Shown here: piece after piece, positions 1 through 20,076 of the stretch
Position numbering within the stretch: position 1 is the first letter of the stretch
Layout: every line of letters starts with the position of its first letter
Assembly (NCBI RefSeq): GCF_038025025.1
Contig: NW_027117347.1
Location: 1-64,000 of the forward strand
Direction of reading: 5' to 3'
Length of the DNA stretch: 64,000 nt
From: Phyllosticta citribraziliensis
Taxonomy: Eukaryota
Program-made: the position numbers and the translations under genes
Notes under the pieces: generated by a model
What the model was told of the DNA's origin: nothing
Database searches by the model: none
The model's input: the letters and a program-made list of their open reading frames with translations, nothing else

Positions 1-112
1 ACCCTAACCCTAACCCTAACCCTAACCCTAACCCTAACCCTAACCCTAACCCTAACCCTAACCCTAACCCTAACCCTAACCCTAACCCTAACCCTAACCC
101 TAACCCTAACCC
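1..112. repeat. Telomere, (CCCTAA)n, about 18 perfect copies
   Basis: Perfect CCCTAA tandem array from position 1. TTAGGG is the canonical Pezizomycotina telomere repeat. Confidence 0.99.
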
Positions 113-179
113 TTTTCAATCCAGGCTTGCGCGAATCGGACATTCCCTTGGTCTGGGGGAGGTGTCATCCTAAGTAGAG

Positions 180-3100
180 CCATAGTAGAGGGTTTTATTC
201 TAGTTAAAGACTTTAATAAGGAATAGTATATAAGGATATATCTCTAGTAGTTTTAATAGCCTAGACTTTCTCTTTAATTTAAGTATATATAACCTAGATT
301 CTATATAGAGCTAGAGTAGGTACTTCTTAAGTTAGGCCTTAACTAATCTCTTATATAGAGCCCTATCCTAACTAGAGAATTTAGTAGTAAATAGAGTATT
401 AAAAAACTTATTATATAGTTTTATTATACTAGCTCTACTCTTTAATTTAAACTAGTATAAATTTAATTTTATATAGACCCTAGTAGGGAACCTATATAGA
501 TTAAGCTACTAGTATCCTACTAAGCCTAACTTAGAGCTATTTAATAAGGGAAGAAGTATAAGATTATATATTATATAAATATACTACTCTTATATTACTT
601 ATTAATTTAAGCCTATATAATCCTAATTCTATTTAGAATCTAGCTAGGAATTATCTAGCTAAGCTACTATTTAGTACTTAGAGCTAGATCTAGAGAATCT
701 TAATAAGGAATAGATCTTAAAATTATATACTATATAGATTTTTTACTTTAATATTTCTTATTAAAATAAGCCTATATAACCTTAACTTTATATTAATTCT
801 AGCTAGGAACCTATTTATATAGGGCTACTACTTAGAATCCTCTAAATTAGACCTAGGAATCTTAATAAGGAATAATATATAAAATTATATAATTTATAGC
901 TTTATTTTTCTTATTAGTCTTATTAAAATAAGTCTATATAACCTAGACTAGAAGCTATTTTAGGTACTAAACTCTTTTAATATAAGTAGTATATAGTAGA
1001 GCCCTATACCTAAGCTAAACTTCTTAGGGAATAGATTATATAAGAATCTATTTTATATACTATTCTAAACTAGCCTAACTATTAAATTAAGCCTATATAA
1101 ACCTAAATTTATAGGAATTTAAGTAAGGTATTAGTCTAGACTAAATATAAGATAAAAACCCCTTTACTTCTCCTATTTAATAAATCCTTAGCTAAGTAGT
1201 AATTAACTAAATAGGTTTATTACTTTTAATATACTCTCTTAAGGGAAGATATATAATTACTAGTCTATTAATATCTAGGTTTATACTTATCTAAGGCTAA
1301 ACCCTTTATAGGATCTAATATAAAACCCCTATTAATATAAAAAGCTACTAAGTAATAGAGTATAGGGCTTCTAGTCTTATAGTTTTATTATATTTAAGGT
1401 ACTCTTTAAAATAAGCCTATATAATTTTAGATTTATCTAGCTTTAGACCTTATCCTTATTTAAGACTACTCCTTATATAAGACCTCTATTAATATAAAAA
1501 ATATACTTAAAGAAAAAGAGTAAGATCTTATATCTTATAGCTTTATTAAGTTTAAAGTACTCTTTAAATTAAAGTAGTACTATTTTAAATTCCTCTATTT
1601 ATAGATCCTATCCTTATTTAAGGCTATATCTTATATAGAATCTCTATTAATATAAAGAACTTACTTAATAATAGACTATAAAAGCTCTTATCTTATAGCT
1701 TTATTAAGTTTAAGGTACTTTTTAAATTAAAGCTATATAATTCTAGATTTCTCTATTTATAAATCTTATCCTTATTTAAAGCTATATCTTATATAGGACC
1801 CCTACTAATATAAAGATTTTATTAAGAAATAGAGTATAAAGGAATTTTAATAATAGTTTACTTAATATAAAGGTCCTCTTTAAAATAAGCCTATATAATT
1901 ATAAATTCCTTTATTTATAGATCTTATCCTTATTAAAGGCTAGGCTTTTTATAGGTCCTATATATAACCCTTACTAATATAAAGAACTTACTTAAAAGTA
2001 AAATATAAGGCGCCTAATCTTACTATCTTATTAAATTTAAGATATACTTTAAAGTAATTTTATATAAATTTAAAATTTCTAGCTTTAAACCTTATACTTA
2101 TTTAAGAGGTTAAAATATATATAGACTCCTATATAGAGCCCTTCTTAAAAGATATACTTAATAAAGACTAGAATATAAGGTCTTATAAATTATAATTTTA
2201 TTATATTTAAGGTACTATTTAAATTAAGGCTATATAAATCTAAATTCTTCTACTACTAGGCCCCTTACTTAGCTAATTAAAATATACCTTAATATTTACT
2301 AGATACTCTTTAAGAACTTAATAAGGACTAAAATATAAGGCCCCTATCTTACTATTTTATTAAATCTAAGGGTCCCTTTAAAATAAGCCTATTTAAATCT
2401 AGATTTTTTAGATCTATATCTCCTATTTACCTAATTAAAATATATATTAAGGCCTACTAGATACCCTTAATAAGGCGCCTTTAATAAGGATTAAACTATA
2501 AGATCTCTTCTCTTATACTCTTTTCCTATTTAGTATACTCTTTAAAATAAGCCTATATAATTCTAGGTTCTTCCTATTCTAGGCCTATTATTTACTTAAA
2601 GGTTAACCTATATAGAATATACCTATAAGATAAACTTAATAAGGATTAAAGTATAAGATATCTTTTCTTATAGCCTTTTCTAGTTTAATATACTTTTTAA
2701 AATAAGCCTATATAATACTAAATCTATTAAGGTTTAGGCCTATTATATACCTAAAGATTAATCTATATAAAACGCCCTATAAGGTAAACTTAATAAGGAT
2801 TAGAGTATTAGATTTCTAGTCTTATAGCTCTATTTAGTTTTAAATTCTCTTTAAAATAAGCCTATATAATTCTAGATCTCCTCTATTCTAAGCCTAATAC
2901 TTATTTAAAGGTTAACCTATATAGAATACCCCTATAAGGTAAACTTAATAAGGATTAAAATATAAGATTTCTAGTATTATACCCTCTTCTAGTTTTAAAT
3001 TCTCTTTAAAAAGAGCCTATATAATTCTAGACTCCTTTAATACTAGGCCTATTACTTATTTAAAGGCTTAACCCTATACTAATTTCTCCTATAAGGTAAA

Positions 3101-6100
3101 TAAGATAAGGACTAGAGTATATAGCTTTTTAATTAGATTTATTATCTACTTTAATATGCCCTTTAAAACTAGCCTATATAATAATACTAAATCCCTTAGG
3201 GGTAAGGCCTTTTACTTATTTATAGGCTAACTTATATAAGATTCCCCTCTATAGAGAACTTAATAAGGGCTAAAATACTATACTTTTAACTTAATAGTCT
3301 TATTAAATTTAACTTTAGCTTAAAAATAAGCCTATATAACTCTAGATCTATTTAGGTTTAGGCCTTTTTCTCTTATAGGGGTTAAAATATATATAGATTC
3401 TTATAGAAAATACTTCCTTAATAGTAATTTTAATAGATAATAAAGAGTAATACTTCTTATTTAATAGTCTTTTTAAATACTACTTCTCTTATAAAATAAG
3501 CTAGTATAATCTTAATCTTATCTATTTATAGAGCTCTTTACTAATAAAGTCTAACTTTAAAGAGGCTACGTCCTACTAGATCTACTTATTAATAAGTATA
3601 CTAATATACTTCTACTTATAATATCTTATTAGTCTAGCTATAATCTCTTAATTAAACTAAGTTTCTAACTAGTTTTCTAATAGTATAGCTTATATCTACT
3701 TAGGCTAAAAAATAGGTAAAACTCCTCTACCTATAAGACTAGCTTAGTAAGAATAGTAATATAAAAGTTTCTAGCTAGTAGTATTATTAATTAAGCCCTA
3801 ATAATTTAAATAAGACTATATATTCTAGTTAGCTCCTATTTTCTATACTAAATATATATATTTTAGCTTATAGGGGAGAGCCTTACTTATAAGAGTAACT
3901 CTTTATATATATAATATATAATAGATTATCCTCTCTTATAAATCTTTATAAAAGGCCTTAAATATTTAGTAGAAAATAGTATAAGACTAATTCCCTATCT
4001 ACTTTTAACTACTTTTACTTTTTTATACTTAAGGTTAACTCTTATATAGAACCTACTATTTTTATATCTAACTTAATAAGTAGTATTAAAATAGGTATCT
4101 TTTATTATCTTCTACTTAATCTAGTAATACTCTTTTAACTAGATAAAGAAGTATAAAAGGAGGATAGTCCTAGACTTATATAGGCTAATTATTAAGTAGC
4201 TACTATATAGCCTACCTCTCTTTTAAAACTAAGATAAGTAGACTACTAGTAATCTAGTAACTAGATACCCTTACTAATTTAGCTATTCTATTTTATATAG
4301 AGCTATATAAATATTAATTTCCCCTATAGGTCCTAGATTATTAGTACTTAGGTCTAGACTATAAAGCGCCTACTATAATAGTACTAACTAAATAAACTAA
4401 GTATTTAAAAAGGCTTCTTTATTAGTCCTAACTACTATAGCTATCTCTTAATTTAAGAGGAGCTAAAAGAGTAAATCCTTTAATACTTTTTAAAATCTTA
4501 ATTTTTTAAGTTTACTACTAATTAATATCTACCCCCTACTTAGTCTTTTAATAGATAATATAGTATAAGTATATTTAATACCTATATTTTACTTATCTTA
4601 ATCTACTCTTTTAAATAATACTATATACTTATAAGTAGTATAGAACTCTAGCCTCTATATTAGTTAAATATTCTATAGAAGCCTACCTATATACTATTAT
4701 AAGATAAACTTAATAGATAAGTAATAGTACCTAGATTTCTTACTTACCTAGAGTTAATTAACCTTACCTATTTTAATAAAACTTATATACTTATAAGAGG
4801 TCTACTCCTAAGGCCTTAATAGGCTTAGGTTAATACTATATAAAACTTACTAGTAAGAGATTCTAATAGGTAATAAAGTATAAAGTATACTTATTACTAT
4901 TTCTAGTTAGTTTTCTAGTACTCTTAAAATAAAAGCTATATAAACTAGGAAATATATTAGTACTTACTTAATAGACTAATATATCTACCTTAACTCTTAT
5001 ATATACTACTATAATACTAACTAGATAAGAAATATAGTATAACTAGTATCTCTAGTTACTCTAGCTAAGTTTAAGATGCTCTTTTATAGGAGCCTATATA
5101 ACTTAGAAATTCTTTATTTTTACTTAAAATATTTAATCTTTTCCTAGCTTAACCTAGCCCTACTACTAGTTAAAACCCTTACTAGATAGTATAATAAGAA
5201 ATTCTATAATAGTTCCTATCTTTATAGTTTCTAGCTAAATCTATTATACTCTATAATAGGAATCTATATAAATAAGAAATTTCCCCCCCCTTTCTAAATA
5301 GTTAAAAGAATTATTATTTAGCCCCTATTTAGGTCTATTAGCTATAATCTTAATAAGAAATAGATTATAAAGCTTATCTCTACTATTTTCTTTTAATCTA
5401 GGCCTACTCTATATAATAAGACTATATATTCTTAAAAAACTCTTATACTTTATTTTAAACTAGTCTTAAATAACTACCTAGAACTCCTTATTTAACTTTA
5501 ATAATTTAACTAGTAAGCACCTTAGAATACTATATTTTACTTAGAAGGGGTTTTAAATAGACTAAAAATTAAAATCTAAGTTAAGGAAGAGTCTATATAG
5601 TCCTACTCTTTAAGTACTTTAAACTATTTATATCTACTACTAGAAAGGTACTATTATAAGGGAGGAAATAACTAGGTATTATATAATACTATACTTATTA
5701 CTCCTAGAGTATATTTTACTTATTCTTTAATTTAAGACTATATAATCTTATCTAGCTACTTAGTAACTACTTAAGGCAGCCTAGGTTAACTCCTATATAA
5801 ATAGCTAAAGAAGATAACTTAATAAGCTACCTTATATAAACCTAGCTTTTATTACTTTTTAACTAATTAGAATATACTCTTTAAGCTAAAAAGAGTATCC
5901 TTATACCTATTCCTTTCTATAACTTAATTTAGCCCCTAGTAATATTAGCTAGAACTAGGCCTATAACTCTTTTAATAAGTACCTTTTTATAAGGCCTCTT
6001 TTTACTCTAGCTCTATTAATTTAACCTTCCTCTTTTAAATAGACCTATATACTACTAAGGTAACTTATATAGAGCTTAATTAAGCCTAAACTTAATACTA

Positions 6101-8590
6101 GCCTCCTACTTCTTATAAATAATAGTACCTATTAAAAACTACTATATAAAGGAATTACTAGCTACCCTAGGCTTAGATTCTATTATACTTTTAGGTAAGC
6201 CTATATATTTTAGACTAGACTAGTATAGTACTTATACTTAATATAGTAAGATAGAGATATTATATATAGTAGTTTATTTAATAATTTAATAAATATAGTC
6301 CTATATTTTACCTCTTTAAGTATTTCTAACCTAGCTTTATTTACTAATTCTAGTATACTATACGCTTTATACCTAGCCTTAGGGTACCTAATTCTACTAA
6401 TATTAAAGTACTTAATAGATATACTTTATAGGGACCCTTAATAGAAAATATTATATAAGGTATTTCTAGTATACTTTATATAAAACTCGCCTTACTCTTT
6501 CTAGAAATACTATATACTTAGTACTAGACCTATTTAGTACTTATAATAGGTCTAAGTAGTTAATTTATAAGTAAATACGCCCTATATAAGAATTAAATAA
6601 GTATAACCTAGTATAAGTCTCTACTATATAGATTTAGTAGTACTATTCTTACTCTTTTAAAGGAGACTATATATTTAGGGTCTTAATAAAAGTAATAAGC
6701 TTCTTAACTTAAAATTTTAGCTTATATACTTATTTAGCTATATATTTAAGTAGCTTATTATACCTTTTAAATAGGCTATTAGTTCTTTTACTAGTCTTTT
6801 CTAATATAGCCTTTTTTATTCTTTAGAAAAGGGAACTTACTTTAAGAGTATTTAAGAACCTACCTCTTTTCTCTTAAGATATACTTTATAGCCTACTAAA
6901 AGACCTTCTACTTAGGGATAATAATAACTATTACCTTTTAAAGTATTATTTTATTAGTATCTAATATAGAATTCTTTACTCTTTTAAATAAGCCTATATA
7001 ATTCTAAATCTAGTTAATATAGCCTATACTATATTACTAGAATAGTCTATACTAGGTACTAGGTAGGATACTAATATAATAACTCTATAACTAAAGTAGC
7101 TAATAAGCTTATAGTGCCCTTATTTAATTTACCCTTACTTAGGTATATAAGAAATTATATTAATAAATATACCTAAGTAATATTTAGCTAGAAATAAGAC
7201 CTAATATATTTTAGACTACTAGCTAAGTAGATAAGTAATAGAGTATAAAGCCTTTAAATAACCTTTTTAGATATAGAATTCTACTCTTATTTAAAATAGC
7301 TTATATATTTTAGGGTAGACCTATTTTATAGGAGATATAACTAAAAGTATAGCTAGAAATAGCTTATTATAAAATACTAACTAACCCTATTAAAGAGTAA
7401 AGTAGATAGGTAAGATAGATTATATAACTTATCTTACTACTTTTAACTCTAAATTCTTAATATTTTAGCCGGCCCTATAGAACCTAGTCTAGACTTATAT
7501 TACTAGTACTTTATCTAACTTTTTATAAAATACTATAAAGGTAGGGCCGTCTAAGGGTAATTTAACTAGTATTATAGCTAGAATAGTAGTCTTTATTACT
7601 TCTAGCTAGGTTAAGGGTACTAACTCTATAAAGAATATACTTTTAGGATTAGAATTATCTATTTAGAACTTATATTAGCTTATATTAACTATATTATAAG
7701 ACGTCTTATAACTAAGAACTTAATAAAGAATAAGGAGTAAAGAATTACCTTAGACTCTTTTTACTTATCTAGTATAACCCTTATAAATAGGACTATATAA
7801 TTCTAAAACTTTACTATAGTACTAGCTTTAGATATTTAGATAAGATATAGATCTTTATAAGTAGCTAGAATTAAATAATACTAAGCTATTTAGCTTCTTC
7901 TTAACTAGATTCCTACTCTTTAAGCTTTACTTTTTCTAGTACTAAGGGTATAGTAGTAATCTAAACTTATTTAGACTTTCTATAAGTAGGAATTAAATAG
8001 GTAAAATCTTATAAGAGGGTAAACCTAGCTAATTATATTACTTATAACCTTTTATCTATTATATTCTATTAATTAGACCTTACTCTTTTAAATATATATA
8101 TACTCTCCTAAGTTAACTATAGTATTAGTATAGGCAGGCCTAAATATTAAGAATAATAGAAGATACTATATCTATACTAACTAGATAAGAAATATAGTAT
8201 AATAGCTAATTATAGTCTAAACCTACTAAGTATAAGTCGCTCTTTAATTTAGATATATATATTTTAAGGAGGAGGCGTACCCTATAACTTTTTAATACTA
8301 AGCTATATATTTAGTAAAAGTCGCCTAGTAATAGTATATCTATAGAATTTTAGTACTATAACTTTAAATACTCCCTTAGATTAAGCCTTAGACTTAAGGA
8401 AGTTAAAAGATTAGGTAGTTAAATAGGCTATAAAGATAATTATAGTATTAGAAGGGACGGCCTACCTAGGAGAGTAATAAGGATAACTACTATCTTAAAG
8501 GAGACTCTTTAATTCCTATCTATCTAGGACTCTTCCTCTATAGTCTTAGAGGATACCTTTAAACTAATGCCTTAGGAGACTTTTTAATCA
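180..8590. other. RIP-mutated AT-rich block
   Basis: CpA/TpG (and CpG) almost absent, large TpA excess, no ORFs. C>T/G>A conversion is visible when these units are compared with unmutated array units. Confidence 0.95.
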
Positions 8591-9488
8591 CTACCCGGCC
8601 CGAGAAATTTCTATAATTAGTGGCGCTGCGTCGACTTAGACGCGTTTGCTATACCTCTCCTAAGAAGCGTTCATCTGCCACGACAACACCTTAGGAGCAG
8701 TCGTCTGTCGCCCATCATCTTCCTACTGCCCGCGAGGAGCATTCAGGCACCTGGTGGCCATGGAAACCAACTAAAGGCGGCTGCGGCTGGTGGTCGACTC
8801 TGAACCAACCACCTTCATCGCCAACACACACCACTCGACAATGCGACGAGATTAAATGCCCCAATCACAGGAAATAGGCAAATAGGCTACGCTCGTTCCA
8901 TCTACGGTCGCAAGAGGGCAGCCACGGGCTTCAGCGGTTGGCCCCCAAATGCGCCGCCAGCCCGTCGCAACGCCGCGAATGTTACAACCAGCTCCACACT
9001 GATCCTGCAGCGCCCTTCCCATGGGAAATAGGAAATAAGACATTGCCCTCTCTACTGGGTGCGTTTGAGACCCGGCCGCGGGCGTCTGGCGGTCTGGTGC
9101 GAGGCTCACGTCCAACCCGTTTCACCACCAGCACGTGCCCCAAGCATACAGTGACCACAGAAGCCGTGCTCCTACATGAACCAAGCAAAGAAATGTCCCT
9201 CTTCCTATTGGGGCTTGAAAGCAGCCGGCGCCGGGAGTGTGCGGCCTCGTTTCGAGCCCGGCCTCACCCCGTGTCGACCACCACCCACCACGGCTCGCCC
9301 GCCGTTGGTCTAATCGATTATCTATTGCGCAGACTTCTTGGGAGACTTTCAATCTACCGGCCCACCAAGTTTCTGGTGGGATAGAGGACTCTGCGGACTG
9401 GAAACCTGACCGGATCACCCAGCCGGAAATCCCTGCACCGAGTATCTTCACGCAGACTGGCTGGGACTCCGATCGATTCATAGTCGAA

Positions 9489-9590
9489 GACGTCGTCCTT
9501 TGGATGAGGGAGGACATCAGTGCGCCGTTTGCCCGGGGACGTCGTCCTTTGGATGAGAGAGGACATCAGTGCGCCGTTTGCCCGGGGACG
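9489..9590. repeat. 49-bp tandem duplication (2 copies)
   Basis: GACGTCGTCCTTTGGATGAGRGAGGACATCAGTGCGCCGTTTGCCCGGG occurs twice head to tail with one mismatch. Confidence 0.95.
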
Positions 9591-11374
9591 CCATGGTCGC
9601 GGGAATGAAAGAGTGTTGCGGGTCTGGTGGTGGAGAGTTGGAGTAATGCCGTGCTGGTTGACAGCCTGGTTGGCTACTGCTCTTATAATCTACTAAATGA
9701 ACAGTTCTCTTTCAGACAGAAGTGGTCTCCTCAGCTCCCGGGGCGGGTTTCGCTTTGCGCAGCTCATGCGGGCCACACAGGGCTCGCCGACGACCTCCCT
9801 GATGCGCAGCTACCCCAGTCTTCGAGCGCAAGGCTCCCAATTCCATGGGAATACGGAGAAATATGAGCTCTTTTGAATTGGCCTGCGCGGTTTGGGAAGG
9901 AGCCTGTTAGTCGCAAGCCCCAGACCAGCTTTCCGCGAGTTCATCCACTCCCCATGGCCAACCGGCGACACTTTGATCAGCATTCGAGCCCCAAGCCTGT
10001 TATTTCGCGAAAATGTCAATTCGGCCGTCCTTTTCAAGATGGGCTTGCGCGCCTTTGTCGTTCTCAGCTCCTCCCGTTTAACAGGGGAGTATCTGAATCC
10101 GCTGAACTCGCCGTCGTTACTCACTGTCGATACCCTCTTGACGGGTACCAGAGTACGAGGCCTGTCTTGCTGCAGAATTTCCAATTGGACAGTGCTCTTT
10201 TCAACGGGACCGCGCGATCCGGACTATGCGCAGAAGGCCAACCCAGACCGCACCCTAGCCCGCCCCGACCACACCCTTCGGCCAGCAGATTCGTCACCCT
10301 TGCAGTGCGAAATCCAGTCTCGCACGGGTCTACCAAAGAGACTGCGCCGATTCGAATGAGCCATGACTCGTGACCATCAGATCAGGACTTTCCTGCATAC
10401 GGAACCCCACAACACTGCCTGCAAAACGAGGGAAGAGGAGCAAGAGATGAGCACAAACGCGCGAGGCAAACTTTTTATACGGATCGAATCAGAAAATTCG
10501 CCTCTTCAAGATGAGCCTGCGCGCGAGCGACCGGAACAGTAAGGCACTTGTATTTGTCCCCGGAAGTGCCACCGCCTGCAAAACAAACCAGGCAGAGAAC
10601 TTTTCCGAAGCCAGGCGGGGCCCAGAGAGGCTTTATAAAACCTTCCAGGCAGCGCCGCTCTTTCGATTGGTACTGCGCGATCCCGAGAAGAGTCGTTGGA
10701 TGGGTTGAACTTGTCCCGGACGGCAACCTCCGAAGGTCTCTTCGTCAGGGTAGGAATCCGGGACTTGGGAGAGAGGGACTTTAGATTTTGGCATGAGCCA
10801 GCTTAGAAAGGTCCGCTCTTCAAGAATTGGGGCTGTTCTCCCGCGCCGGAGACGTGGTTTGCCTCAGGGTGGCCCGGGGCATCACCCACCAAAACAGGAC
10901 CAGCGGCAGTTAGCTGGGTATTTGAGAACGAGGAGCCGGCTTACTACCAATCGAATCGGAAAATCCTCCTCTTTCAATGGGACATGCGCATTCTGGGTCC
11001 ACATCTGGTGCTCCACGAGTACTGTCCCAGGATGACACCACGAGCAAAACAGCCCCACCGGGATTCTAGCTGGATATTTGAGAGCGAAGGGCCGTTCCCT
11101 CGCCAATTGAATTAGAAACCTCCCCTCTTCCCATGGGACACGCGCGTTCTGCGTCCGCATCTAGTGCTTCACGAGATCTCTTCCTGCATAATGGACCCAC
11201 CAGCAAAACAGGACGAGCAGAAGTAGAGCTGGATTTTTGAGCGCCAAGTTCCGTTTCCTCGTCAATTGGGTCACGAGCCTCCCCTCTCGAAAGTTAACCT
11301 GCGCATTCAGGCCAGAGCCATGGTTCCTTTTCAATCGGGCAAACTCACAACACGTCCATCATGCGAGCATCCAG

Positions 11375-11706
11375 CGCAGAAGAAGCGAAGCGACTGGTGA
11401 GAATAGGATATGGAAAGGCACAACGCGACCTGCCGGAGCTCGCAGATGGACGCAGAAGAAGCGAAGCGACTGGAGGTTGGAGGAGGGGAGCACTCGACAA
11501 ACCAGAGCTCGCGGATGGACGCAGAAGAAGCGAAGCGACTGGAGGGTGGAGGAGGGGAGCACTCGACAAACCAGAGCTCGCGGATGGACGCAGAAGAAGC
11601 GAAGCGACTGGGGGTGGAGGAGGGGGAGCACTCGACAAACCAGAGCTCGCAGACGGACGCAGAAGAAGCGAAGCGACTGGGGGTGGAGGAGAGGGAGCAC
11701 TCGACA
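11375..11706. repeat. 69-bp minisatellite (~4 near-identical copies plus a partial one)
   Basis: CGCAGAAGAAGCGAAGCGACTGG starts at 11375, 11451, 11520, 11589 and 11658. It explains the overlapping repetitive ORFs in all frames. Confidence 0.95.
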
Positions 11707-12689
11707 GCCTGTGCACTGGAGAGCCACCCGCGGTGCGATCTCCCCTCCTGACTCGAGATCTCGACGAACAAACGTCCGCGAAGGCTTAGAATTGGATGTT
11801 TAATCAAAGGACCTCTACAAACAAGGATGGGACTGCGCAATGTTGAAATTATCTAGATCTACCAATGTCTGCCGCGACTATGCACGGGGCATCAAGTACA
11901 GCCAGAATGAGGCCAATCATGTCCGGCACTGTCCTGAATAGGCTCGGACTACGTTTTGCAACCTCAGCGGCCTCGAAAGCGTGGGACCAAGGACCTCCTC
12001 TCCAGATCCCGCCTGGTGGCAAAAGACAAGCCCGTTGACGTCCGGAAGAGGCGTCCACTGTCAACTCTGTCTACTTCTTTGCCAGTTTTTCCTCTTGCCG
12101 ACGCAGCTTCATCTCCACGCTTGCGTTTCGTGCCCTGTGGGCCATGCTCTCCCTTCTCTCCGTCACGAGATTGTCTGGTGGGCCGGCATCATCAAGAGCG
12201 ATGGCTGAGTGGTGTCAGGAGTGGGCCGAGACGTGGGCCCAGGATCAGATACCTAGGATTGGAGCGCAGAGCTCGGCTGGCCTGTCCAAGACCTTCTGTA
12301 GGTCTAGAAAGTAGATAAGAGTATGTTTGGGCGACTGGGGATCTGTCGGAAAGCCAATGGGGCTGCCTAGTGTCTTGCCCGTCGGCCAAACCGCATTCGA
12401 CAAGTAGTATTTAGCGCTCCCTCACTCCTTTCCCGCTTCCCCCCAAACTTTGTAGGCTTCTTCTATAGACATCATGTGATAGGTAAAAGGTTGTTTCTTG
12501 CTTGCCGCTGTGATACCGCGCTGCCCACAGCCCAAAAGCCGAATCCACTCAACGACAGTTCACGGTTCCTCGTCAAAGCATGTATTTTGTGGCTTCCAAC
12601 TCTGTCCGTCCCTAGTTTAGAGTGGTTATGACATGCTGCGATGCTTTGTGCGCCAAAAAGACCCCTACCCGGTCCGAAATGCTTCGAAT

Positions 12690-13745
12690 ATTACCATCGA
12701 CGTCCGAAAACATTCACGTATTCCCTCAGACATGCCTTGAATGGCCCCAGACTTTTTATATGGCGTTTCAAGCGTCGTCTTCCACCCCGAGGCTAGCCAA
12801 AACGCTGATCCCGTGTCTTTTTGGCAAAAAGGGGTCTCCAAAAACCAACCCTACATGTTTAAACTTCTTCAATCTTGTCCAAACCGCTCCCATACTTTGC
12901 ACTTCACCCTTTCTCGGCCTTCTTCCACCCTAGGGCTTGTCAGAGACCTGTATCTCGGCCTAGATTCAAAAATGAGGTTTCCCAAAACTTTACCCAAATA
13001 CATCAACTTTCCCATTTCTAGCCGTATCGCCCCGGGACTTTTTCTATCATGTTCTACGGGCAATCTTCCACTATCGGAGTAGTCAGAAGGGCGAAAATCG
13101 GGCTGGTTCTCAAAAGGGGGTTTTCAAAAATCAACCCCTGACACACAAACTTCCTCAGTTTTGGCCGTATGGCTTCCAGAAACTTTCTATGATACTCTCC
13201 AGGCTCTTCTCCACTATTGGCATGCTCAGAACGGTATATATACGCCTATTTGCAAAAGTGAAGAATTCAAAAACGAATCGGCAGAAACCAAACTTTCGCG
13301 TCTTTGCTCCTACAACTCCAAGATTAATTCTACGAGCCTCTCAGCGCCAGAAAGACTACTAGGGAGACTTTCATGGCATTCGGAGCAGGTTTTGTTGTGT
13401 CTGAATCTCCAAATCCACCAAAAGTGGATTTCCAGGAACCCCAAAACCACGTCCGATGCATCTGAAACTAAGCCAGGCGTCTCTGCGAGGTACGAATGAC
13501 TAGACGCGAGTGTTTCCAGGCTGAATGGACCAGATTTATACTCGCAGGAAATTTAGTATCCCAAAACATCACCTCCGAAACCTTTCATGGAATCAGCCCG
13601 AATGCTCCCGGAACTCTCCCTATAGCCTCTAGGGGCTCAGATGAAGGAGTCAAGGCCCTCTCCAGCCGTGTTGGTAGAGCTTTCGTGTTTAAATATACCA
13701 GTGATTAGAGGTTTAATTGTATTTCTGCTCCACCAAAAGCTTCGA
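12690..13745. repeat. Non-coding region with degenerate internal repeats (~143/285 bp and ~320 bp offsets)
   Basis: 12741 ATGGCCCCAGACTTTTTATATGG ~ 13024 ATCGCCCCGGGACTTTTTCTATC ~ 13167 ATGGCTTCCAGAAACTTTCTATG. 12826 CAAAAAGGGGTCTCCAAAAACCAACCC ~ 13112 CAAAAGGGGGTTTTCAAAAATCAACCC. TCCACCAAAAG at ~13414 and ~13728. Confidence 0.55.
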
Positions 13746-14182
13746 TTTTGCCCTCCATTTTATTTTTCCCCTGTGGAAAAGGGCTTGAATGTGCCACTAG
13801 AGAGCTCTGAGAGCAAGCGGGCTTCATTTGAACTGGTTCCGTTACAAAACGATCCGCCTACGCCAGAAAATGTTCCAATACAGGGCCAAAGCGGTGTCAA
13901 TGGGCGATTACAAGGCTTCGGGTGGTTTATACACTTTTAATTGACCCTTTAGTATTATTCCGAGCATCTAAAAGCATCTGGAAGCCCGCAAAGTCAAAAG
14001 GAGAACCGAGGAGCACTCAAAAGTCAAACGCCCAAGGAGCGTCGGGACCTTGAATACAAGCTGCTCCGCGCATAATCTGCATGAGAAGGGTCCATGGAGC
14101 ATTTAAACGGCCATGTAACGCCTTGTTGGACGTGGAAGCATCTTCTACAAGTGAAGCGGGCTGGGTGGACGGGGCGGCACGT

Positions 14183-15107
14183 TCAGACTTGGACAAGGAC
14201 AACAGGGTGCACGCACGATGAGGAGCATTTGATTGGACTTGCGAGCATCAGAGTCGCTCCGGCAGGGGCAGGTGCTCTGCTCCGAAGGGAATACCCATAC
14301 CGCAGAAGCGAATACGACGGCGGCAAGCAAAGCCCCGCCAGTTCTCCCAGACGTCTTCTCCCAGCACACCAATCATCCCCAAAGAGCGCTGCGCGAGACC
14401 TACACTTGTCTTCTTCAATCGCCGTCCACAACCTCTCCTCAGCGTCCGCTTGTTTCAAGGCCGACTCGGTGTAACTCCTCCTCTTTTCCTCATCCTCGTA
14501 GGCGTTGATTTCGTCCAGACTCTCCTCGAGATCCTTTCGAATGTCCAACACAGAAGTCATCGACACCATGACATTCTTTTCCTTGTACTCTTGCATGGCC
14601 CGCTTTTGGATTACGGTGTTCGCTGTGGTAAAGTCAGCAAATGAAAGCATATCGGGAAAGACGCTCACCTTGGTAAGGAGTGAGCCTGACAGCCTTGCGG
14701 GTGTAACTGTGCCAGTCATGAGTTCCCAGCTTCTTCGCGTCATCATCGTGAAGGGCAGCGGGACTGTGGCCAAGTCCGAAGCCGGACGAAATGTTGCCGG
14801 ATCCGATTCTTGCGAAGAGAATCTCGCCGGCCAAAGCCTGGTCGAGCTTCCACACCTTGTAGATGACGAAGTTCTGGATGGAGTATTGGGGGAAATGGGC
14901 GGCGCAGATGGCTTCCACGAGCTTCATGATGTACGCGTTGCCGCCGCGGTGGTTGGCGTATGCTTCGAACATGGCTTTGGCGTTGTTGGTGAGGCCGAAT
15001 CGCGCAAACGGACGCTTCTGCCTTTCATCTCCTGGCTGAGCGGGCAGCATGGTGCGGGCGCGGGCCACAAACTCACGCACCCTGCGGAGAGCCTCCTCAT
15101 CTTCCAC
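14183..15107 (-). CDS. Two-exon gene (~290 aa): divergent GIY-YIG-like domain followed by an acidic helical region; start codon uncertain
   Basis: Intron 14668-14623 (GTGAGC...GCTGAC...CACAG) joins ORFs 14634..15107 and 14183..14773 in frame. The segment FGLTNN..AMF..Y.NH..GNAYIMKLVEAI...YSIQNFVIYKVW...QALAGEILFARIG.G.ISSGFG aligns by eye with the RIP relic at ~62980-63250. The family assignment is by motif recognition only. Confidence 0.7.
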
Positions 15108-15334
15108 GTATGCGTTTCCGGTGGCATGATGGAAGCGCGCGGTGCTGCAACAGGCGGAATTCGTGTGCGTTGTCGCGTAGGTGCAAGGCGGTTGTCAACG
15201 GAGGTGGAGATGCCCTGGTGGAGGGCGCGGAAGTTTTGGATGGGAGGATTGAGGTTCAAAGTTGGGTGTCGGAACTGGAGCTCTCCCCATTCGGGCCGCG
15301 ATAGCCTCCGGAGGAGCAGGCGCCGGGCGTCGTA

Positions 15335-15562
15335 GGTATAAAGTCTCGGACTCCCTCCGCTCCTCTCTCTTTTCCCTCTTGGTCCACGTTCACAACTCGT
15401 CGGTACGTTGCTTGTTGCCGGTTGCAAGCCAGTACTAACCTTGGAGTCTGAATAGCCTTCACATCTCTGCCCTCGGACCGACCAACCAACCAACCAACCA
15501 AACCCTCTTCTCAAGTAAGCCTCATTACCAAAACCATGGGTTTGCATGGCTAATGGCTATAG
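15335..15562 (+). promoter_or_regulatory. TATA box and 5' UTR with two introns
   Basis: GGTATAAAG at ~15335, then a CT-rich tract and introns 15403-15455 (GTACGT..TACTAAC..TAG) and 15515-15562 (GTAAGC..GCTAAT..TAG) immediately before the ATG at 15564. Confidence 0.7.
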
Positions 15563-15563
15563 A

Positions 15564-15842
15564 ATGCCCGATTCACCTGAGCCGCCTCCTTTGAGCGAAC
15601 TCATTCCGAAGTTTTTGGCGCAATTAGAAATCAATGATGGAATACTTCAGCGGCATCCCGCCCTCATCGCCATGATCGATCGACGCCTCGCTGATCGACG
15701 CCTCGCTCGCGACAACAACAGCAGCAGCGGCGAGCCCGCGGCGGGCAGCGGCGGCGAGGCCGGCAAGGATGACGGCGCTGGCGGCGAGGGCGAGGGCGAC
15801 AAGGGCGACAAGGAGAAGAAGGAGGAGAAGAAGGAGGGCTGA
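15564..15842 (+). CDS. Small orphan protein (92 aa) with G/E/K-rich tail
   Basis: The ATG follows the spliced 5' UTR and codon usage looks coding (MPDSPEPPP...GEGDKGDKEKKEEKKEG). A degenerate paralogous tail lies at 24960-25130. Confidence 0.7.
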   Translation: MPDSPEPPPLSELIPKFLAQLEINDGILQRHPALIAMIDRRLADRRLARDNNSSSGEPAAGSGGEAGKDDGAGGEGEGDKGDKEKKEEKKEG

Positions 15843-15871
15843 GGAGGCCATTAGAAAAATTCCTCATTTCC

Positions 15872-16078
15872 ATGCCGAATGACTTGAAGCTTGACATTGT
15901 GATTCCCACTGCAGCATATGGGTCCGTTGGGTCGTATTCGTATGACAACCCACGCAAAGCACATCTCGTCGAAAAGTACGAGCGGATCGTCGAGTTGGAG
16001 CAAAAGATCGAGGTCATGGAGGCCGCACGCCGCCAATCGTACATTTCCAAGCTTGCGGCATGGACTCTTTGGAAGTGA
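15872..16078 (+). CDS. Small orphan coiled-coil protein (68 aa)
   Basis: ATG-initiated ORF with a helical segment (LVEKYERIVELEQKIEVMEAARR), 30 nt after the previous stop. Confidence 0.45.
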   Translation: MPNDLKLDIVIPTAAYGSVGSYSYDNPRKAHLVEKYERIVELEQKIEVMEAARRQSYISKLAAWTLWK

Positions 16079-18341
16079 AGACCGTGGCGAGTGGGACCTT
16101 TTGACCAGATCATGGCGACGCGGCCTTATGTCCCGCCGAACTCCACAACATCCTCCATCTGACAACACAACATTTTCAATTCACTCTTTCCAATCTCCAA
16201 CAAACACTCAAGTCAGCCATCACCCCTCGCCTTGGATGTTGCACGACTGACAGCTGTAGGATGACTCCCGAGAACAATGACACGTCTCGGGGTAGGCAGC
16301 AATCAGAATTTGTCCACCCGAGCAATCTCCAAGTGATCAAGTGTCGTGAATGAGCATGCAGGATTCTCCCGTGAACAGTGAGTACTGGTCCAGCAAATGG
16401 TCAAACGTGACTACTAAGTTCAACCAAGGAGGTTGGAAAGGCTTCTGATTGAAGGATTCGCAAACGTCTTCGTGGAACCATCGAACGGCTGCTGGCGGTG
16501 AGGGATACGACAGGCATGCCCAGCGGAGCATTCTGCTGTCGTCCTCATCAGGCCTGCCCATCACCGCGGCGGAAGGCTTTGCAGGCGGTTGGGGATTTGT
16601 CCACATCTCCAAGTCTCGGCATACTTCGCTCACCCTGTGTTCGCGCGGATGCGGACTTCCCGAGTCAGATTTCGTGGTCTGCGGCCCATACGGCTGCGAA
16701 GAGAGACTCTGCGCAACCTTGCAAGCAGAACGAAGATCGTAAGTTGTCTGGCAGTAGCCCTGCCGGCCGTCGTTGGTATGAACAGAAGCCGGAACCACCG
16801 ACGAGCGGACGCCGAGCTCCTCGAAAAGCACAGGGAGCTCAACAATTACGCCGAGCTCGAAGCGCAGGCAAATAAATGCGCGCGGAATCGACGCAAATGA
16901 AGAGGGAGTCAGAGGAGTATTTCGCTCGCGGCAAGGCCACGATGGAACGACTCGAAGCGGGTATCTCCGAGGCGAACAAGGCACACGAGACCAGGAGCCT
17001 CCAAACCCGCCATGGGCGAGTAGTCGCAATGAGCTAGGATACGTCCAATCGGTAGTCTTGTGGGCAGAGCAAGCGTCGGACTGTTGGCTCTTCTCGTGAG
17101 TCAATGTCAAATCCCTCCAAATTTCGCACAGAAGGTGAACGTACCACCCGAACGCTTGGGAAAGCCGAGCCAAAGTCTGCATGAGGACTCGTGGCTCGTC
17201 TGCTTTGATTTTTTCGGTGCATGGTGATCATCCTCTCCGAGCTGGAATCCGAAACTTGGCTGAGGGGGCACTGCTTAGGGAGCGAGCAGAGGTCAGGTTG
17301 CAGACGCCGCATCCACGGAAAACCGAACGTGAAATTTGCGCGAGGAGAGATGGCAAAAGGCTCTGAAGGTCGCGCAGTTCGCGGTTTGAGGATCCCAGCA
17401 CCATTCCTCCTCCATTGTAATTGCCATCGTTGGACTGAATTGTTCGAGGAGCTTCGTAGCGGATCTTCGGCTCTAGATGGTTGAGTCGTTGCCGAAGATT
17501 GGCTACCAAGGCTGCCCCGTGAACGCCTGACAGGGCCCTTGGAATGAAGCCTGGGTGTCCCTGGGCCTCGGATCCGCGGGTGCAGCCTTCTTGTTCGAAG
17601 CTCCAATCCAGCAGAGCGTCGTAGACGGTCTCGGTACGTATATCGTGTGGAAGGACTCGCGCTGCGATCGCTGGAGGCACAAGAGGCTTCGAGGGACGGT
17701 CGACGTGGCGGGTTTGAAACCGAGTCTGGCAGGGATCGAGTTAGCCTGGCACCAAGCACAGAAGATGCGGACAGCAAGACTACCATACATCTCAACCTAG
17801 CTCTCTGCTTGGTCGCGGGACACCAAAGCTTGTGCAGTGCTGTTGTGACGCGCCGTGGACGGGCCCGCGGCTGGCCATGTGGCCGCATTGAGAGGATGTC
17901 GTGCGGCTGGTCATGTAATGAGAGTCATCGCTTGTGCATTGGACGCGTCTTTGAGGCGGAGGCTGTGGTGATGGGATGCGGTCGTGCCGTTGATGAAACG
18001 TCGTCGCGCGGAGATGCAGGTTGGGGCTGCCCGCGCCACACGAGAGCCCTGGTAGATTCCAGCTGCGCCACAACCAACCTCACCCGCCGCTCCATCTAGA
18101 GACTTCGAATTGGACGAATGCGCGAAACAGAGGTAGTCATCGAGGAGCTCGGGGAGCATGCTATCGCGCGAATGAAGAGCAGCCGCCGAGGAGAATCAAC
18201 ACGGCTAGCCGCCAGGATGCACTTTGGATGGTGTCATGAATTGTGCGAGAAGAGTCTTCATTTGCATCCTTTGAGGGTTTGTACAGCTGCCCCACCAATC
18301 CCAACCATGAGTCCTGAACTTGCTCCCTACCAGTTCCTCAG

Positions 18342-19131
18342 CTAACCGCCGACAGTATGTCCCGTCTGCATGGCCGCAAGCTTCTCCTCCATGGCTCCCA
18401 TCTTCTCCTCCATAGCTGCCATCCTCTGCTCCATTTCAACCATGCGCAGGCTGCGCTCGTGCCTCAGCATCAAGAGCGTCCTTTTCCTTTTCAAGCTCGG
18501 CACAACGCTCCTCGAGGCGGGCCACGCGGTCTTCAACGTGGGAGACATGCTCTAAGACCTTGGAACAATGCTCTTGGACGCGGTCGGCATGGTTTCGGGC
18601 GTTGGTGGCAGACTCGTGGACGTTGGAACAATGCTCTTGGGCGCGGGCAGCACGCTCTCGGGCTTCGGCGGCATCATCTTGGACTGTGGCGGCACGCTCT
18701 TCGACTTTGGTAACATGATTTTCGACTTTGGTGGCAAACTCTTGAACGCGGGCAGCATGCTTGTGGACGTGAGCGGCATACTCATGGATACGAGCAGCAC
18801 GATCTTCGACGTTTCCATTGCCCACATCGGTGCTGATGTCTTTGAGATTCGAGTTCTCGCGTTCAAGGTCGTGGATCTTGCGCTCCAGCTCGCGAATGAT
18901 CGCCGAGTAAATGCCTCCTTTGGGTATTAGCATCATCCTTGTAGACGAGGAAGCACGACTTACCGCCAGAGCCTATGCCGCCGGTCTTGAGCTTTGGGGT
19001 GGCCATCGAAGGAGGGGGGCTATCGTCTAAACGTCTGTCAGCTTCATCCTTGGGTACAGGCATGTCAACATACGGCCCACGGCACTCTGACTGGACTCCG
19101 AGCTGGGCTTGGAGAAATCCTGAGACTCCAT
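18342..19131 (-). pseudogene. Three-exon heptad-repeat coiled-coil gene with an apparent +1 frameshift near the 3' end
   Basis: ATG at 19131 (MESQDFSK). Introns 19073-19027 and 18963-18918 have canonical signals and keep frame. The protein has 7-aa repeats (VEDRAAR/VQEFATK/VEERAAT). Removing one base at ~18450 fuses EARAQ to LRMVEMEQRMAAMEEKMGAMEEKLAAM. Confidence 0.75.
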
Positions 19132-19425
19132 CTTCAATTGCTTGATGGCGTGACCAGGGAAAGGCGTGTTTGTGTGGGTGGCGCGAGTTGAACGTGTTTG
19201 TCGGGTTGTGGTGGGTTTAAGCGAGCGGTACCTATTGATGTCGACGCCGCCGTCGGCCACAACATCAACACAACCTGGATTTGCCCGGCATACACCCACC
19301 TGCGCTTGCTCTCGTCTCCATCCGCCGGGCATCACCTGCCAACTCACCATCAAAAGCGCCCTTGTCGCGCCCTCACATTCCCCTCTCTTCGTCTTGCCAC
19401 CGCCCACATCTCTTCATGTGCTGCG

Positions 19426-20076
19426 ATGTCATCCTTCCCGAAGGTCCTCTCGAAGAAAAAGCTCAGGGTCCTCGCGTGGATTGAGGAGTCAACAGCCCAG
19501 ACCGCGCACTCCATCATCTCCGAGTCGATCGCGCAAAAGGACGAGGCCGGCGTTGCAATGGAGCTCTGGGAGTATTCTACGGACATCCTCTCGGTCTTGA
19601 AGCACATCTTGTCGTTCGAAAAGGACGTGTCGAAGCTCAAGGCGATGCTTCAGAACGTCGTCGAGGGCAGGAGCGTGCCGGGAGAGGTGCAGTTGGAAGA
19701 TTTCCTCGAGGTATTCGACAAGGTCCACGCGGAGAAGGCCAACTTGAACGAAAAGAAAGGCAAGTACTCTTGGACATTCAGTGAACCAATCTGACTTTGA
19801 CCAGACCAGAAGCACCAGTTGGCTGAGCAGGAGCAGGCTGGCCCGGCAAGCAAGAGACAGCGGCTTTCGACCGAGGCCCCCGAGGATCAACAGCAGCGCG
19901 CCATCACGACCCCGACGCATGAGGGCAAAGCGCCTCCGCCCTTGGTGGATTGGTCCAAGGCCCTTTTCTGCAAGATGCCGCCCGGCTGGGACTATGAGCC
20001 TGACGAGCCTGACGAGAATGACCTCAGTCTTGTCTGGGAGAGGTTGGTCTACGGTTTCGGTCGACCGCGGTCGTGA
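19426..20076 (+). CDS. Two-exon orphan protein (~200 aa) with putative NLS (PASKRQRL)
   Basis: A GC-AG intron at 19760-19804 (GCAAGT...CTGAC...CCAG) joins ORFs 19198..19794 and 19819..20076 in frame. The gene is divergent from the one starting at 19131. Confidence 0.75.

Follow-up and report, generated by a model that had tools for sequence, protein, structure and literature searches.

A RIP-degraded satellite array beside a telomere of Phyllosticta citribraziliensis, with two short boxes as putative former protein-binding sites

Layout and period of the array

The window analysed here, a 64-kb stretch of DNA, starts at a chromosome end, and its first 11.3 kb are occupied by a head-to-tail array of 71 units in a single orientation that extends from the telomere to ~11340. 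The array is followed by a block of genes that are lineage-specific and lack Pfam domains. The features referred to below are as follows.

1..113, + strand: telomere repeat, (CCCTAA)n, the C-rich strand reading inward, as at a left chromosome end (TRF period 6, (ACCCTA) in 18.8 copies, 100% matches; sequence)
111..172, + strand: terminal monomer fragment spared by RIP, its box intact (anchor 105 has a matrix score of 16.4; GC 0.538 and (CpA+TpG)/(ApC+GpT) 1.60 for 111–175)
105..3636, + strand: blocks A and B, comprising 22 RIP'd monomers whose homology spans the entire unit, probably the youngest part of the array (masked-motif alignment z, nhmmer, TRF)
3637..8547, + strand: block C, 32 RIP'd monomers whose interiors are hardly more similar than random sequence (interior mean z 0.67; phase profile; HMM matches)
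8548..11340, + strand: block D, 17 monomers, un-RIP'd from ~8600 (GC 0.563, normal RIP indices; alignments; six anchors of at least 10 bits)
8590..8700, no strand: proximal RIP border, inside the array (50-nt GC profile and composition profile; GC rises from 0.40 to 0.60)
9489..9590, + strand: young 49-bp tandem duplication within a single block D monomer (TRF, 2.1 copies, 98% matches)
10968..10994, + strand: example of an un-RIP'd core box, CTCTTTCAA, 5–6 nt, RCYTGCGCRWTC (anchors; two-box pattern)
11070..11092, + strand: example of the second box, TGGATATTTGAGAGCGA-like, RIP'd form TTAATAAGGA... (alignments; phase profile; D2 family of 18 copies)
11322..11345, + strand: last, partial copy, the 5' half of a box (TTCCTTTTCAATCGGG), at which array homology stops (sequence; alignment of the last units with downstream DNA)

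The telomere repeats continue directly into the 5' edge of the terminal box, CCCT being common to both. An initial annotation of this DNA had described a motif recurring periodically from the telomere junction to 11.3 kb, in about 70 units whose spacings are not codon multiples, and this description was borne out. A dynamic-programming chain gave 71 units with a mean spacing of 159.6 bp (SD 6.5, range 147–174), and the spacings were spread evenly over the three classes mod 3 (26/22/22). The autocorrelation peak expected near 158 bp, in RIP-blind purine/pyrimidine (RY) letters as well, was found at lag 158 in 170–8560 (z of 6.0 in ACGT and 5.3 in RY) and at lag 156 in 8560–11340 (z of 4.2 and 3.1, respectively); control stretches peaked at lags 21–63 instead. 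TRF returned periods of 155–159 at 541–945, 1318–1963, 2481–3121 and 10968–11268.

To model the motif, the array itself was used to train a 40-column RY weight matrix, applied with a threshold of at least 10 bits. This matrix gave 41 peaks on the + strand of 1–11400 and four on the − strand of the array, compared with none on either strand of the GC block (11.4–30.6 kb) and three on both strands of the AT isochore (30.6–64 kb), together 105 kb of strands; these three are the only matches outside the array within the 64-kb window, which is chance level. As the array served as training set, the number of peaks is to some extent built in, which does not apply to their phasing. Spacings between successive peaks, 40 in all, were 154–170 bp, or fell at 305–327 (two units), 466 (three), 799 (five), 1119 (seven) and 1628 (ten). 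The RY 14-mers that recur most widely in the array all fall within the originally described motif and link copies hit by RIP (764...6986) to copies that it spared (10037, 10509). In an independent repeat search, a 60-nt segment with the motif at its centre had 26 copies within the array.

Where it is un-RIP'd, the core box is ~28 bp long and reads CTCTTTCAA, 5–6 nt, GCCTGCGCRWTC; besides the example listed, good copies start near 111, 9867, 10029, 10195, 10501 and 10657. The second element that had been reported upstream of the motif was also recovered, as a second peak of RY 12-mer sharing at unit phase 96–119, ~40–60 bp before the next motif window. Matches to the two-box pattern occur at 10502–10679 and 10969–11146, with a chance expectation of 0. 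Anchors of at least 10 bits are present in six of the 17 block D units and number 13 in block C, where core and second box are detectable in phase in part of the units. Block D further contains a variant subfamily (8832–9307) and a coherent proximal subfamily (10276–11340). In five block D units CAAAAC precedes the next anchor by 72–73 nt, and in four YCAATYG stands 7–15 nt ahead of the motif window.

Homology, RIP state and conservation along the unit

When the motif was masked, RY alignments between neighbouring members of the 22 distal units gave z-values mostly of 5–13, with block means of 3.4 (A) and 5.3 (B). nhmmer E-values ranged from 1e-15 to 1e-34 across 1240–3477, and TRF reported its 155–159 periods in blocks A and B at 75–82% matches. 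Whole-unit homology extends over 105–3637 and 10811–11277; an HMM of block B finds interior-only parts of block C units (for example 4293–4385 and 4798–4898); and in the proximal five to six units several interior boxes are common at fixed phase. Units within 8548–10800 mostly retain the box alone. These whole-unit, interior-only and fixed-phase homologies lead us to conclude that all units derive from a single monomer. The array has the properties of satellite DNA, namely one length class and orientation, homology along the unit (in block C as traces only) and the lack of coding content. The claim that the unit outside the motif has diverged almost beyond alignment holds for ~3637–10800 and fails for 105–3637 and 10811–11277, and the view of the array as repeat-spacer-like rather than a neutral satellite gives way to that of a true satellite, whose 22 distal units are homologous end to end.

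The tract from 175 to ~8590 is RIP'd, and 111–172 and 8600–11340 are not. Between 175 and 8560 GC is 0.243, TpA/ApT 1.77 and (CpA+TpG)/(ApC+GpT) 0.01, values that denote saturation; between 8600 and 11340 the corresponding figures are 0.563, 0.60 and 1.26. Within the box, C>T and G>A are the sole differences between the RIP'd and un-RIP'd consensus, and such transition-only differences, together with CpA/TpG depletion and TpA excess, are the marks of a RIP'd repeat. That RIP hides three quarters of the array is confirmed by these indices, and the G/C positions of the box are destroyed in 53 of the 71 units, GCCTGCGCR having become GCCTATATA. Because RIP rewrote these positions in three quarters of the units, the box can no longer act there as a sequence-specific site, and the earlier proposal of a phased protein-binding site under present-day selection cannot hold for that part of the array. 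Block C was RIP'd even though its units had already diverged in RY terms, whereas the equally diverged block D was spared; simple tandem-repeat recognition therefore fails to explain the border, whose sharpness raises the question of what RIP recognised. Independent contigs cover the un-RIP'd part only, so the RIP'd 8.4 kb is documented by the assembly alone.

Conservation along the unit is not uniform. Pairwise identity in the box compared with the rest of the monomer was 73% versus 59% in young block B and 47% versus 35% in un-RIP'd block D, and the box is thus moderately better kept, the effect being modest. RY 12-mer sharing folded on unit phase, a statistic that magnifies small per-site differences, peaked at 8–31 (the motif) and at the second box, and fell to the background level at phase 48–95 in the older blocks; re-anchored controls put through the identical procedure were flat (0.04–0.67), without such peaks. 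The two boxes are prominent in all blocks, among them the one that RIP spared. For each of 17 unit segments, a 24-column matrix was derived exclusively from block B and run on blocks C and D. The motif segment gave 14 matches in block C and six in block D (2.5 and 1.4 expected), and the other 16 segments gave 2–13 and 0–4, a C+D mean of ~8 compared with 20 for the motif. RY information was 13.5–13.7 in motif windows and 12.5–12.8 in the best interior windows; in block C, relative to the homogeneity of young units, the box was retained no better than some interior bins. The phase profile and the block-B matrix both agree with the initial annotation, for which uniform conservation along the unit would have meant a plain decayed satellite. 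A short box standing above its monomer, as in satellites of the CENP-B-box type, is present here with a modest effect.

Signals of coding or structured RNA are absent. No frame exceeds 168 codons stop-to-stop in the array proper, the longest lying in its un-RIP'd part; a 203-codon frame at 11192–11803 begins in the last unit and falls mostly within a 69-bp repeat beyond the array. No splice joints were found in 8564–12600, although neighbouring genes show them. An RNA-processing signal, the other function suggested initially, was not supported either: Rfam gave no credible match in 8560–11800 at E up to 10, ARAGORN found no tRNA, folding z was near 0 on both strands (+0.17 and −0.11), a consensus structure for 13 units contained 0 pairs, and no inverted repeats were found in the array. 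The array does not belong with tandem small-RNA genes (tRNA, 5S, snRNA, snoRNA or SINE-like), having no family match or conserved structure. As to nucleosomes, the argument put forward earlier is one from the unit length only; the 10-bp periodicity of WW dinucleotides showed no clear excess over controls, with a power at 10.0–10.6 bp of 2.0–2.75 in the array and 1.75–1.80 in controls, on higher baselines.

Origin of the array and nature of its boxes

On balance we favour the view that the array is a RIP-degraded satellite at a chromosome end, with boxes preferably read as former protein-binding sites. The satellite and its degradation by RIP, taken alone, we hold with considerable confidence; that the boxes are or were bound by protein is our most tentative step, a possibility to which we would give somewhat less than even weight. 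A non-coding monomer of ~158–160 bp would have been multiplied head to tail up to 71 units, presumably by unequal exchange or by replication-based copying at the chromosome end. The proximal units, the most diverged, would be the oldest and the distal 22 the youngest. The distal 8.4 kb would later have been recognised as a repeat and RIP'd to saturation, whereas 2.8 kb on the proximal side and the final 60 bp beside the telomere would have escaped; the result is an AT-rich and most likely heterochromatic tract that separates the telomere from the first genes. The core box and its partner ~40–60 bp upstream have diverged more slowly than other parts of the monomer. Before RIP, a protein that recognises specific DNA sequences may have bound them, at one site for each nucleosome length, by analogy with the CENP-B box, in which case the seven intact un-RIP'd copies would be the sole candidates that could still be bound today.

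Plain decay is a serious contender, though on the whole an unlikely one. The boxes would then be patches of low mutation or indel rate, with no factor bound and no sequence-specific function beyond that of telomere-adjacent repeat DNA. This would fit the modest identity gap (73% versus 59% and 47% versus 35%), the closeness of motif-window RY information (13.5–13.7) to that of the best interior windows (12.5–12.8), and the erasure of the box by RIP in most units with no visible consequence; the spread of unit lengths (SD 6.5) is, by our estimate, what accumulated small indels would give. It sits less well with the prominence of two boxes in every block when re-anchored controls lack peaks, with the 20 motif-segment matches in blocks C and D against a mean of ~8 for the other 16 segments, and with the CpG-rich word TGCGCR, whose density in block D (3.65 per kb) is 5.7 times that of the GC block (0.64 per kb).

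Fungal core promoters are marked by CT-rich tracts and TCAA-like starts, and human TERRA-type promoters are CpG-rich repeats close to the telomere, from which transcripts run into it. Un-RIP'd units, with a CCAAT-like box, a CT-rich tract and an initiator-like TCAA, might form a multimerised promoter-like or transcription-unit module that drives subtelomeric non-coding transcription or a small downstream frame, and we regard this as improbable. YCAATYG precedes the motif window by 7–15 nt in four units, the last partial box lies ~25–40 nt upstream of the ATG at 11361 of a small repeat-containing frame, and contigs from two runs containing spliced RNA fall on the un-RIP'd array (8827–9539 from X1 and 10683–10936 from X2); however, these runs may include DNA too, and the contigs give no strand, start or level. 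Against a promoter, moreover, the CCAAT-like box is confined to four of the 17 un-RIP'd block D units, the array lacks discrete ends or joints in the contigs, and neither RNA structure nor an RNA family was detected. An array of repeats and spacers, or of small structured RNA genes or processing signals, with interiors acquired or diversified unit by unit, is very improbable. The box does persist in phase among interiors of near random similarity over 3637–10800, but interiors are homologous in 22 distal and about five proximal units, interior-only HMM matches occur in block C, the supposed repeat is just 47–73% identical among units, and searches for an Rfam family, tRNAs, inverted repeats, a stable fold and consensus pairs were all negative. 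With such box identity, and interiors homologous in at least 27 units, the array also falls outside the CRISPR-like repeat-spacer class. Periodicity is the one point in favour of a degenerate or spliced repeat-protein gene, which can be practically dismissed: unit lengths are even across the mod 3 classes (26/22/22), the longest stop-to-stop frame of the un-RIP'd array proper has 168 codons, and 8564–12600 lacks the splice joints that neighbouring genes show.

A bolder form of the protein-binding reading, which we think unlikely though less so than a promoter, would make the box pair at its fixed distance the recognition module of a putative subtelomere-binding protein of filamentous fungi, which would set its sites at nucleosome-length intervals beside the telomere, as a fungal equivalent of the CENP-B box in alpha satellite. 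The array would be common to chromosome ends, that sharing would have triggered RIP of the distal 8.4 kb, and the working sites left would be the telomere-adjacent copy and six intact proximal ones. If the box is a binding site, it would suggest that filamentous fungi possess a DNA-binding factor specific to subtelomeres and that nucleosomes at a chromosome end are phased by the sequence; if not, the array is a well-resolved case of uneven satellite decay. Either way, it should aid the annotation of AT-rich 'unknown repeat' tracts in fungal assemblies.

Comparison with known systems

A satellite of this kind is uncommon, not unprecedented. It is established that satellite monomers at subtelomeres can be of nucleosome length and that satellites can carry protein-binding boxes, the CENP-B box being an example (reviewed in PMC8122249), and plant examples of subtelomeric satellites include those described for potato (PMC3276127) and khipu of Phaseolus (PMC3797529). 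Subtelomeric satellites of other eukaryotes resemble the present array in being non-coding, head-to-tail, in one orientation and abutting the telomere (PMC8122249); here the monomer is ~160 bp, with subfamilies and an age gradient. The difference is that this array lies in a RIP-competent ascomycete and is mutated to saturation over three quarters of its length. Long satellites are rarely described in RIP-running fungi because RIP destroys repeats, and our literature search found no comparable array in a filamentous fungus. Alpha satellite, with its 171-bp monomer, shares the nucleosome-length unit and one short box that is better kept (PMC8122249). In contrast, the array described here is telomeric rather than centromeric, and its box is a putative site of unrelated sequence, with modest excess conservation and largely overwritten by RIP.

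The distal tandem-repeat domain of the 'true' subtelomere, as outlined for fungi and other organisms in PMC8381367, likewise places short tandem repeats beside the telomere; the definition given there requires duplication at several chromosome ends, whereas the present array is known from one end alone. The AT-rich tracts of PMC13535480 are similar in consisting of tandem repeats rather than recognisable transposons, but the accessible text of that source gives no monomer, motif or telomere link for them, and 'telomer' occurs in it 0 times. A parallel for the mutation itself is provided by Neurospora, in which natural tandem duplications that have diverged undergo RIP, C-to-T mutation there too being limited to the repeated tract, with fairly sharp borders. 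Here, by comparison, the tract is a 53-unit satellite stretch, and its border lies inside the array between two equally diverged blocks. As RIP-hit and RIP-spared units stand side by side in one array, it constitutes a natural before-and-after record of RIP acting on a satellite.

A satellite of 71 monomers at a chromosome end

The telomere repeats at 1–113 mark the left end of the chromosome. They are followed by a satellite of 71 head-to-tail monomers of ~160 bp, three-quarters of it mutated by RIP (the C>T and G>A mutation of repeats in fungi), non-coding and without the signature of an RNA gene. The window divides as follows (coordinates on the forward strand).

1–113: telomere repeat, (CCCTAA)n, 18.8 copies with 100% matches
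~175 to ~8590: AT-rich, RIP-mutated tract of the array, 24% GC
8600–11340: tract of the array free of RIP, 55–58% GC
End of the array to 30.6 kb: GC-rich gene block, delimited by composition
30.6–64 kb: AT-rich tract, 29–30% GC

Both AT-rich tracts carry the signature of RIP. TpA/ApT and (CpA+TpG)/(ApC+GpT) are 1.77 and 0.01 at 175–8560, and 1.92 and 0.10 at 30.7–64 kb; the GC-rich parts of the window give 0.49–0.60 and 1.26–1.34. The host is therefore a RIP-competent ascomycete, and Ascomycota is also the taxon given in the single protein-atlas entry that names one. At 30–40 kb, the lags of the autocorrelation come in multiples of 3, pointing to RIP-mutated coding sequence, perhaps of old transposons, and several RIP-mutated minisatellites of 33–72 bp lie at 31.2, 42.5 and 47.3–49.6 kb. 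The subtelomeric monomer is absent from 30600–64000.

The initial annotation had proposed a periodic array with a unit of ~158 bp, and autocorrelation, word sharing and matrix spacing all agree with it. In the RIP-mutated part the autocorrelation is strongest at lag 158 (z 6.0 with four letters and 5.3 in the purine/pyrimidine alphabet, RY, which is blind to RIP), and in the un-mutated part at lag 156 (z 4.2); in control stretches the maximum lies at short lags, 21–63. The top shared RY 14-mers of 111–11400, found with no prior motif, all fall inside the motif that had been described, and connect mutated copies with un-mutated ones at 10037 and 10509. A 40-column RY matrix at a threshold of at least 10 bits gave 41 peaks on the plus strand of the array and 4 on the minus strand, against none in the GC block (38 kb, both strands together) and 3 in the AT isochore (67 kb, likewise). 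The count is partly circular because the training set was the array. The spacing of the peaks is not circular; gaps are 154–170 bp or near multiples spanning 2, 3, 5, 7 and 10 units. Chaining of anchors yielded the 71 units, with a mean of 159.6 bp (SD 6.5, range 147–174), and independent repeat finding recovered 26 in-array copies of a motif-centred 60-nt piece and 18 of an 85-nt piece extending from a second box, ~40–60 bp upstream of the next motif window, into the motif.

Within the motif, a box of ~28 bp, the consensus of the 7 good un-mutated copies differs from that of the 34 good RIP-mutated copies only by C>T and G>A. Equating GCCTGCGCA with GCCTATATA was thus correct, GCCTATATA being the RIP-mutated form of the box. 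These results describe one locus in one assembly.

Common descent and uneven decay of the monomers

Unit interiors were compared in the RY alphabet against shuffles, with the 40-nt motif window masked. Blocks A and B (105–3637, 22 units) are homologous throughout, with neighbour z-scores mostly of 5–13 and block means of 3.4 and 5.3. Interiors are near random in block C (3637–8548, 32 units; mean z 0.67) and in block D (8548–11435, 17 units), except at 10811–11277, where z is 6–8. A profile built from block B only matches interiors alone in block C (HMM positions 57–143 at 4293–4385 and 46–141 at 4798–4898), and most of its 24-column interior segments exceed expectation there (3–13 hits vs 2.5 expected). 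Block C does not consist of foreign ‘spacers’, and a repeat-spacer organization, as had been suggested, is not borne out by the array, given also the interior homology of blocks A and B. When block D was mutated by RIP in silico and searched with the block B HMM, matches were weak and on both strands, and a control matched too.

Several boxes are common to the final 5–6 units of block D at fixed phase. Ahead of the next anchor in block D, CAAAAC lies at 72–73 nt in five units, YCAATYG at 7–15 nt in four and TTTGAS at 41 nt in three. Units 8832–9307 are a variant subfamily, with GCGTTTGAG or GCTTGAAAG in place of GCGC. We read the array, from these sequence relationships, as a satellite that has subfamilies and is graded in age: the proximal units would be the oldest and the distal units the youngest. 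One un-mutated monomer contains a tandem duplication of a 49-bp unit at 9489–9590 (2.1 copies, 98% matches); this duplication is young, local and free of RIP.

Conservation along the unit was followed by the sharing of RY 12-mers, folded onto the phase of the unit (tolerance 15 nt). In the RIP-mutated blocks A–C, sharing peaks at phase 8–31, the motif, and at phase 96–119, the second box; in block D the motif peak alone stands out, and in blocks C and D sharing falls to the shuffled level at phase 48–95. Anchoring on the motif could itself produce a peak, and eight control stretches were therefore re-anchored by an identical procedure, using this matrix and chain. They yield flat profiles (0.04–0.46, apart from a single bin at 0.67) and average anchor scores of −2.1 to −4.8; after re-anchoring, block C scores +5.1 and block D +2.5, with peaks of 1.09 and 1.10 respectively. 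The 12-mer statistic enlarges small per-site differences. Pairwise identity in block B is 73% in the box vs 59% in the rest of the unit, and in block D 47% vs 35%, the latter being about the value for a gapped alignment of unrelated sequence. In block C, relative to the homogeneity of young units, the box is kept no better than some interior bins. Conservation along the unit is thus uneven, but moderately so: decay is slower in the two boxes than in the remainder of the monomer, and the earlier description of a conserved motif with divergent interiors had the direction right, but the contrast is smaller than it seemed by eye.

RIP borders, transcription and neighbouring genes

RIP is saturated across 53 units and ends within ~100 bp at 8590–8700, inside the array. 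In the RY alphabet, to which RIP makes no difference, blocks C and D had diverged to the same degree, and therefore similarity between neighbouring units fails to explain why block C was hit and block D spared. RIP can mutate DNA between closely spaced repeats and can sense interspersed homology at only 36% identity, according to one source (PMC4858203). All of 111–8590 may once have had a second copy, for example at another chromosome end, and the border at 8590–8700 would be the end of this former duplication. The array would have grown by unequal exchange or by replication-based copying, and its RIP-mutated tract is presumably heterochromatic. A contig from X2, one of four coded sequencing runs, matches the window from 8731 on and is preceded by 182 unlike GC-rich letters, with no splice signal at the flanks; near this border, another isolate may be differently built.

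Beside the telomere, the last ~60 bp of the array (111–172) are free of RIP, with a GC fraction of 0.54, and RIP begins at ~175. An edge effect of RIP may account for this escape, as may later repair, healing or copying. In a single observation, the telomere repeats join the terminal box exactly at its 5′ edge, with CCCT in common. The idea that telomeres were seeded by healing at the CCCT of the box was dropped as a general account, since CCCT is there in a minority of units.

The array is non-coding. The longest stop-to-stop frame within the array proper has 168 codons, and a 203-codon frame at 11192–11803 starts in the last unit and mostly crosses a 69-bp repeat past the array. Unit spacings, as had been stated, are not codon multiples (26/22/22 modulo 3) and ignore codon phase. 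The array is also not a recognisable RNA gene array, and the idea that the motif is an RNA-processing signal finds no support. Rfam gave nothing credible on the un-mutated 3.2 kb, even at E up to 10, ARAGORN found no tRNA, and there are no pairs of inverted repeats of at least 12 nt. The 17 un-mutated units fold about as well as their shuffles on both strands (mean z +0.17 and −0.11; 25 mononucleotide shuffles each), and RNAalifold gave no consensus pairs among 13 of the 17 block D units (u8661, u9307, u9477 and u11217 were left out). As to nucleosomes, the proposed link comes from unit length; 10-bp periodicity of WW dinucleotides is not distinctive in the array.

Parts of 8600–13600 are present in all four coded runs, none of them on record as RNA. 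Two of these, X1 and X2, contain RNA; their contigs skip stretches of 46–63 nt with CT..AC ends in two minus-strand genes; neither shows a splice joint at 8564–12600. A 713-nt contig of X1 (8827–9539) and a 254-nt contig of X2 (10683–10936) lie on the un-mutated array, a weak hint of low transcription, as runs of this type can include DNA and the contigs give no strand, ends or level. Contigs of the four runs confirm the un-mutated part only; the RIP-mutated stretch 3650–8563 is covered by none of the four, and 12932–14023 by neither X1 nor X2, but such gaps are uninformative.

The GC-rich block contains the following features.

11354–11706: 69-bp (23-codon) tandem repeat directly downstream of the array, 3.9 copies, 96% identity
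14208 to at least 17789, minus strand: spliced transcript, introns of 46–63 nt with CT..AC ends on the plus strand
18416–20000, minus strand: spliced transcript, introns of the same size and ends
28866–30623, minus strand: 585-codon frame, with 39/33-bp units at 30121–30453

The 69-bp repeat is stop-free in all six frames and covered by X1 contigs; an ATG at 11361 opens a frame through it that would encode ~143 aa with 23-aa repeats. No Pfam domain was found in the frames of the two spliced transcripts (14208–20000), one frame having sub-threshold coiled-coil matches, and the 35 frames of 11.4–30.6 kb gave nothing beyond such matches for one frame. Several collinear segments of 73–99 nt, 85–88% identical and free of RIP, are shared by 21191–21512 and 26780–27131, ~5.6 kb apart, which look like two paralogous genes. 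Two copies of a 96-nt piece, 93% identical and 159 bp apart, lie in the 585-codon frame (at 29438 and 29597). The frame belongs to no Pfam family and a protein atlas search gave no usable relative; the atlas includes its product from residue 40 onward, and the structural model is poor.

A possible role for the boxes and comparison with known satellites

We tentatively prefer the explanation that use by a DNA-binding protein preserved the boxes, and hold it with clearly less than even confidence. If a protein did bind there, only seven copies of the box would be intact today. The main rival is neutral decay, in which a satellite simply decays unevenly along its unit. A smaller rival concerns the un-mutated units, which could be promoter-like modules; they carry a CCAAT-like box, a CT-rich tract and TCAA, and the last partial box lies ~25–40 nt before the ATG that opens the frame through the 69-bp repeat.

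Relatives were sought by scanning metagenomes with the two-box pattern, which gave 102 loci, all single chance matches except L063, with 2 matches, and L024. The latter, a contig of 3116 bp, is a prokaryotic CRISPR array with a 37-nt repeat and a period of ~72 nt; it is unrelated to the fungal array, and its 14 fits to the pattern are coincidental. Neither nhmmer, with an HMM of the un-mutated units, nor blastn found a relative among the 102 loci, the best being L088 at E 0.12. A partial literature search found no filamentous ascomycete for which a ~158-bp subtelomeric satellite that has a conserved box is described.

The AT-rich isochores of Annulohypoxylon are described as mainly tandem and unknown repeats (PMC13535480). 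‘True’ subtelomeres have a distal domain of short tandem repeats, as outlined in PMC8381367, and satellites with monomers of nucleosome length are common in the subtelomeres of plants and animals (PMC8122249). For the protein-binding explanation there is a likeness: the boxes here would resemble the CENP-B box, the element of alpha satellite that is used by a protein (PMC8122249).
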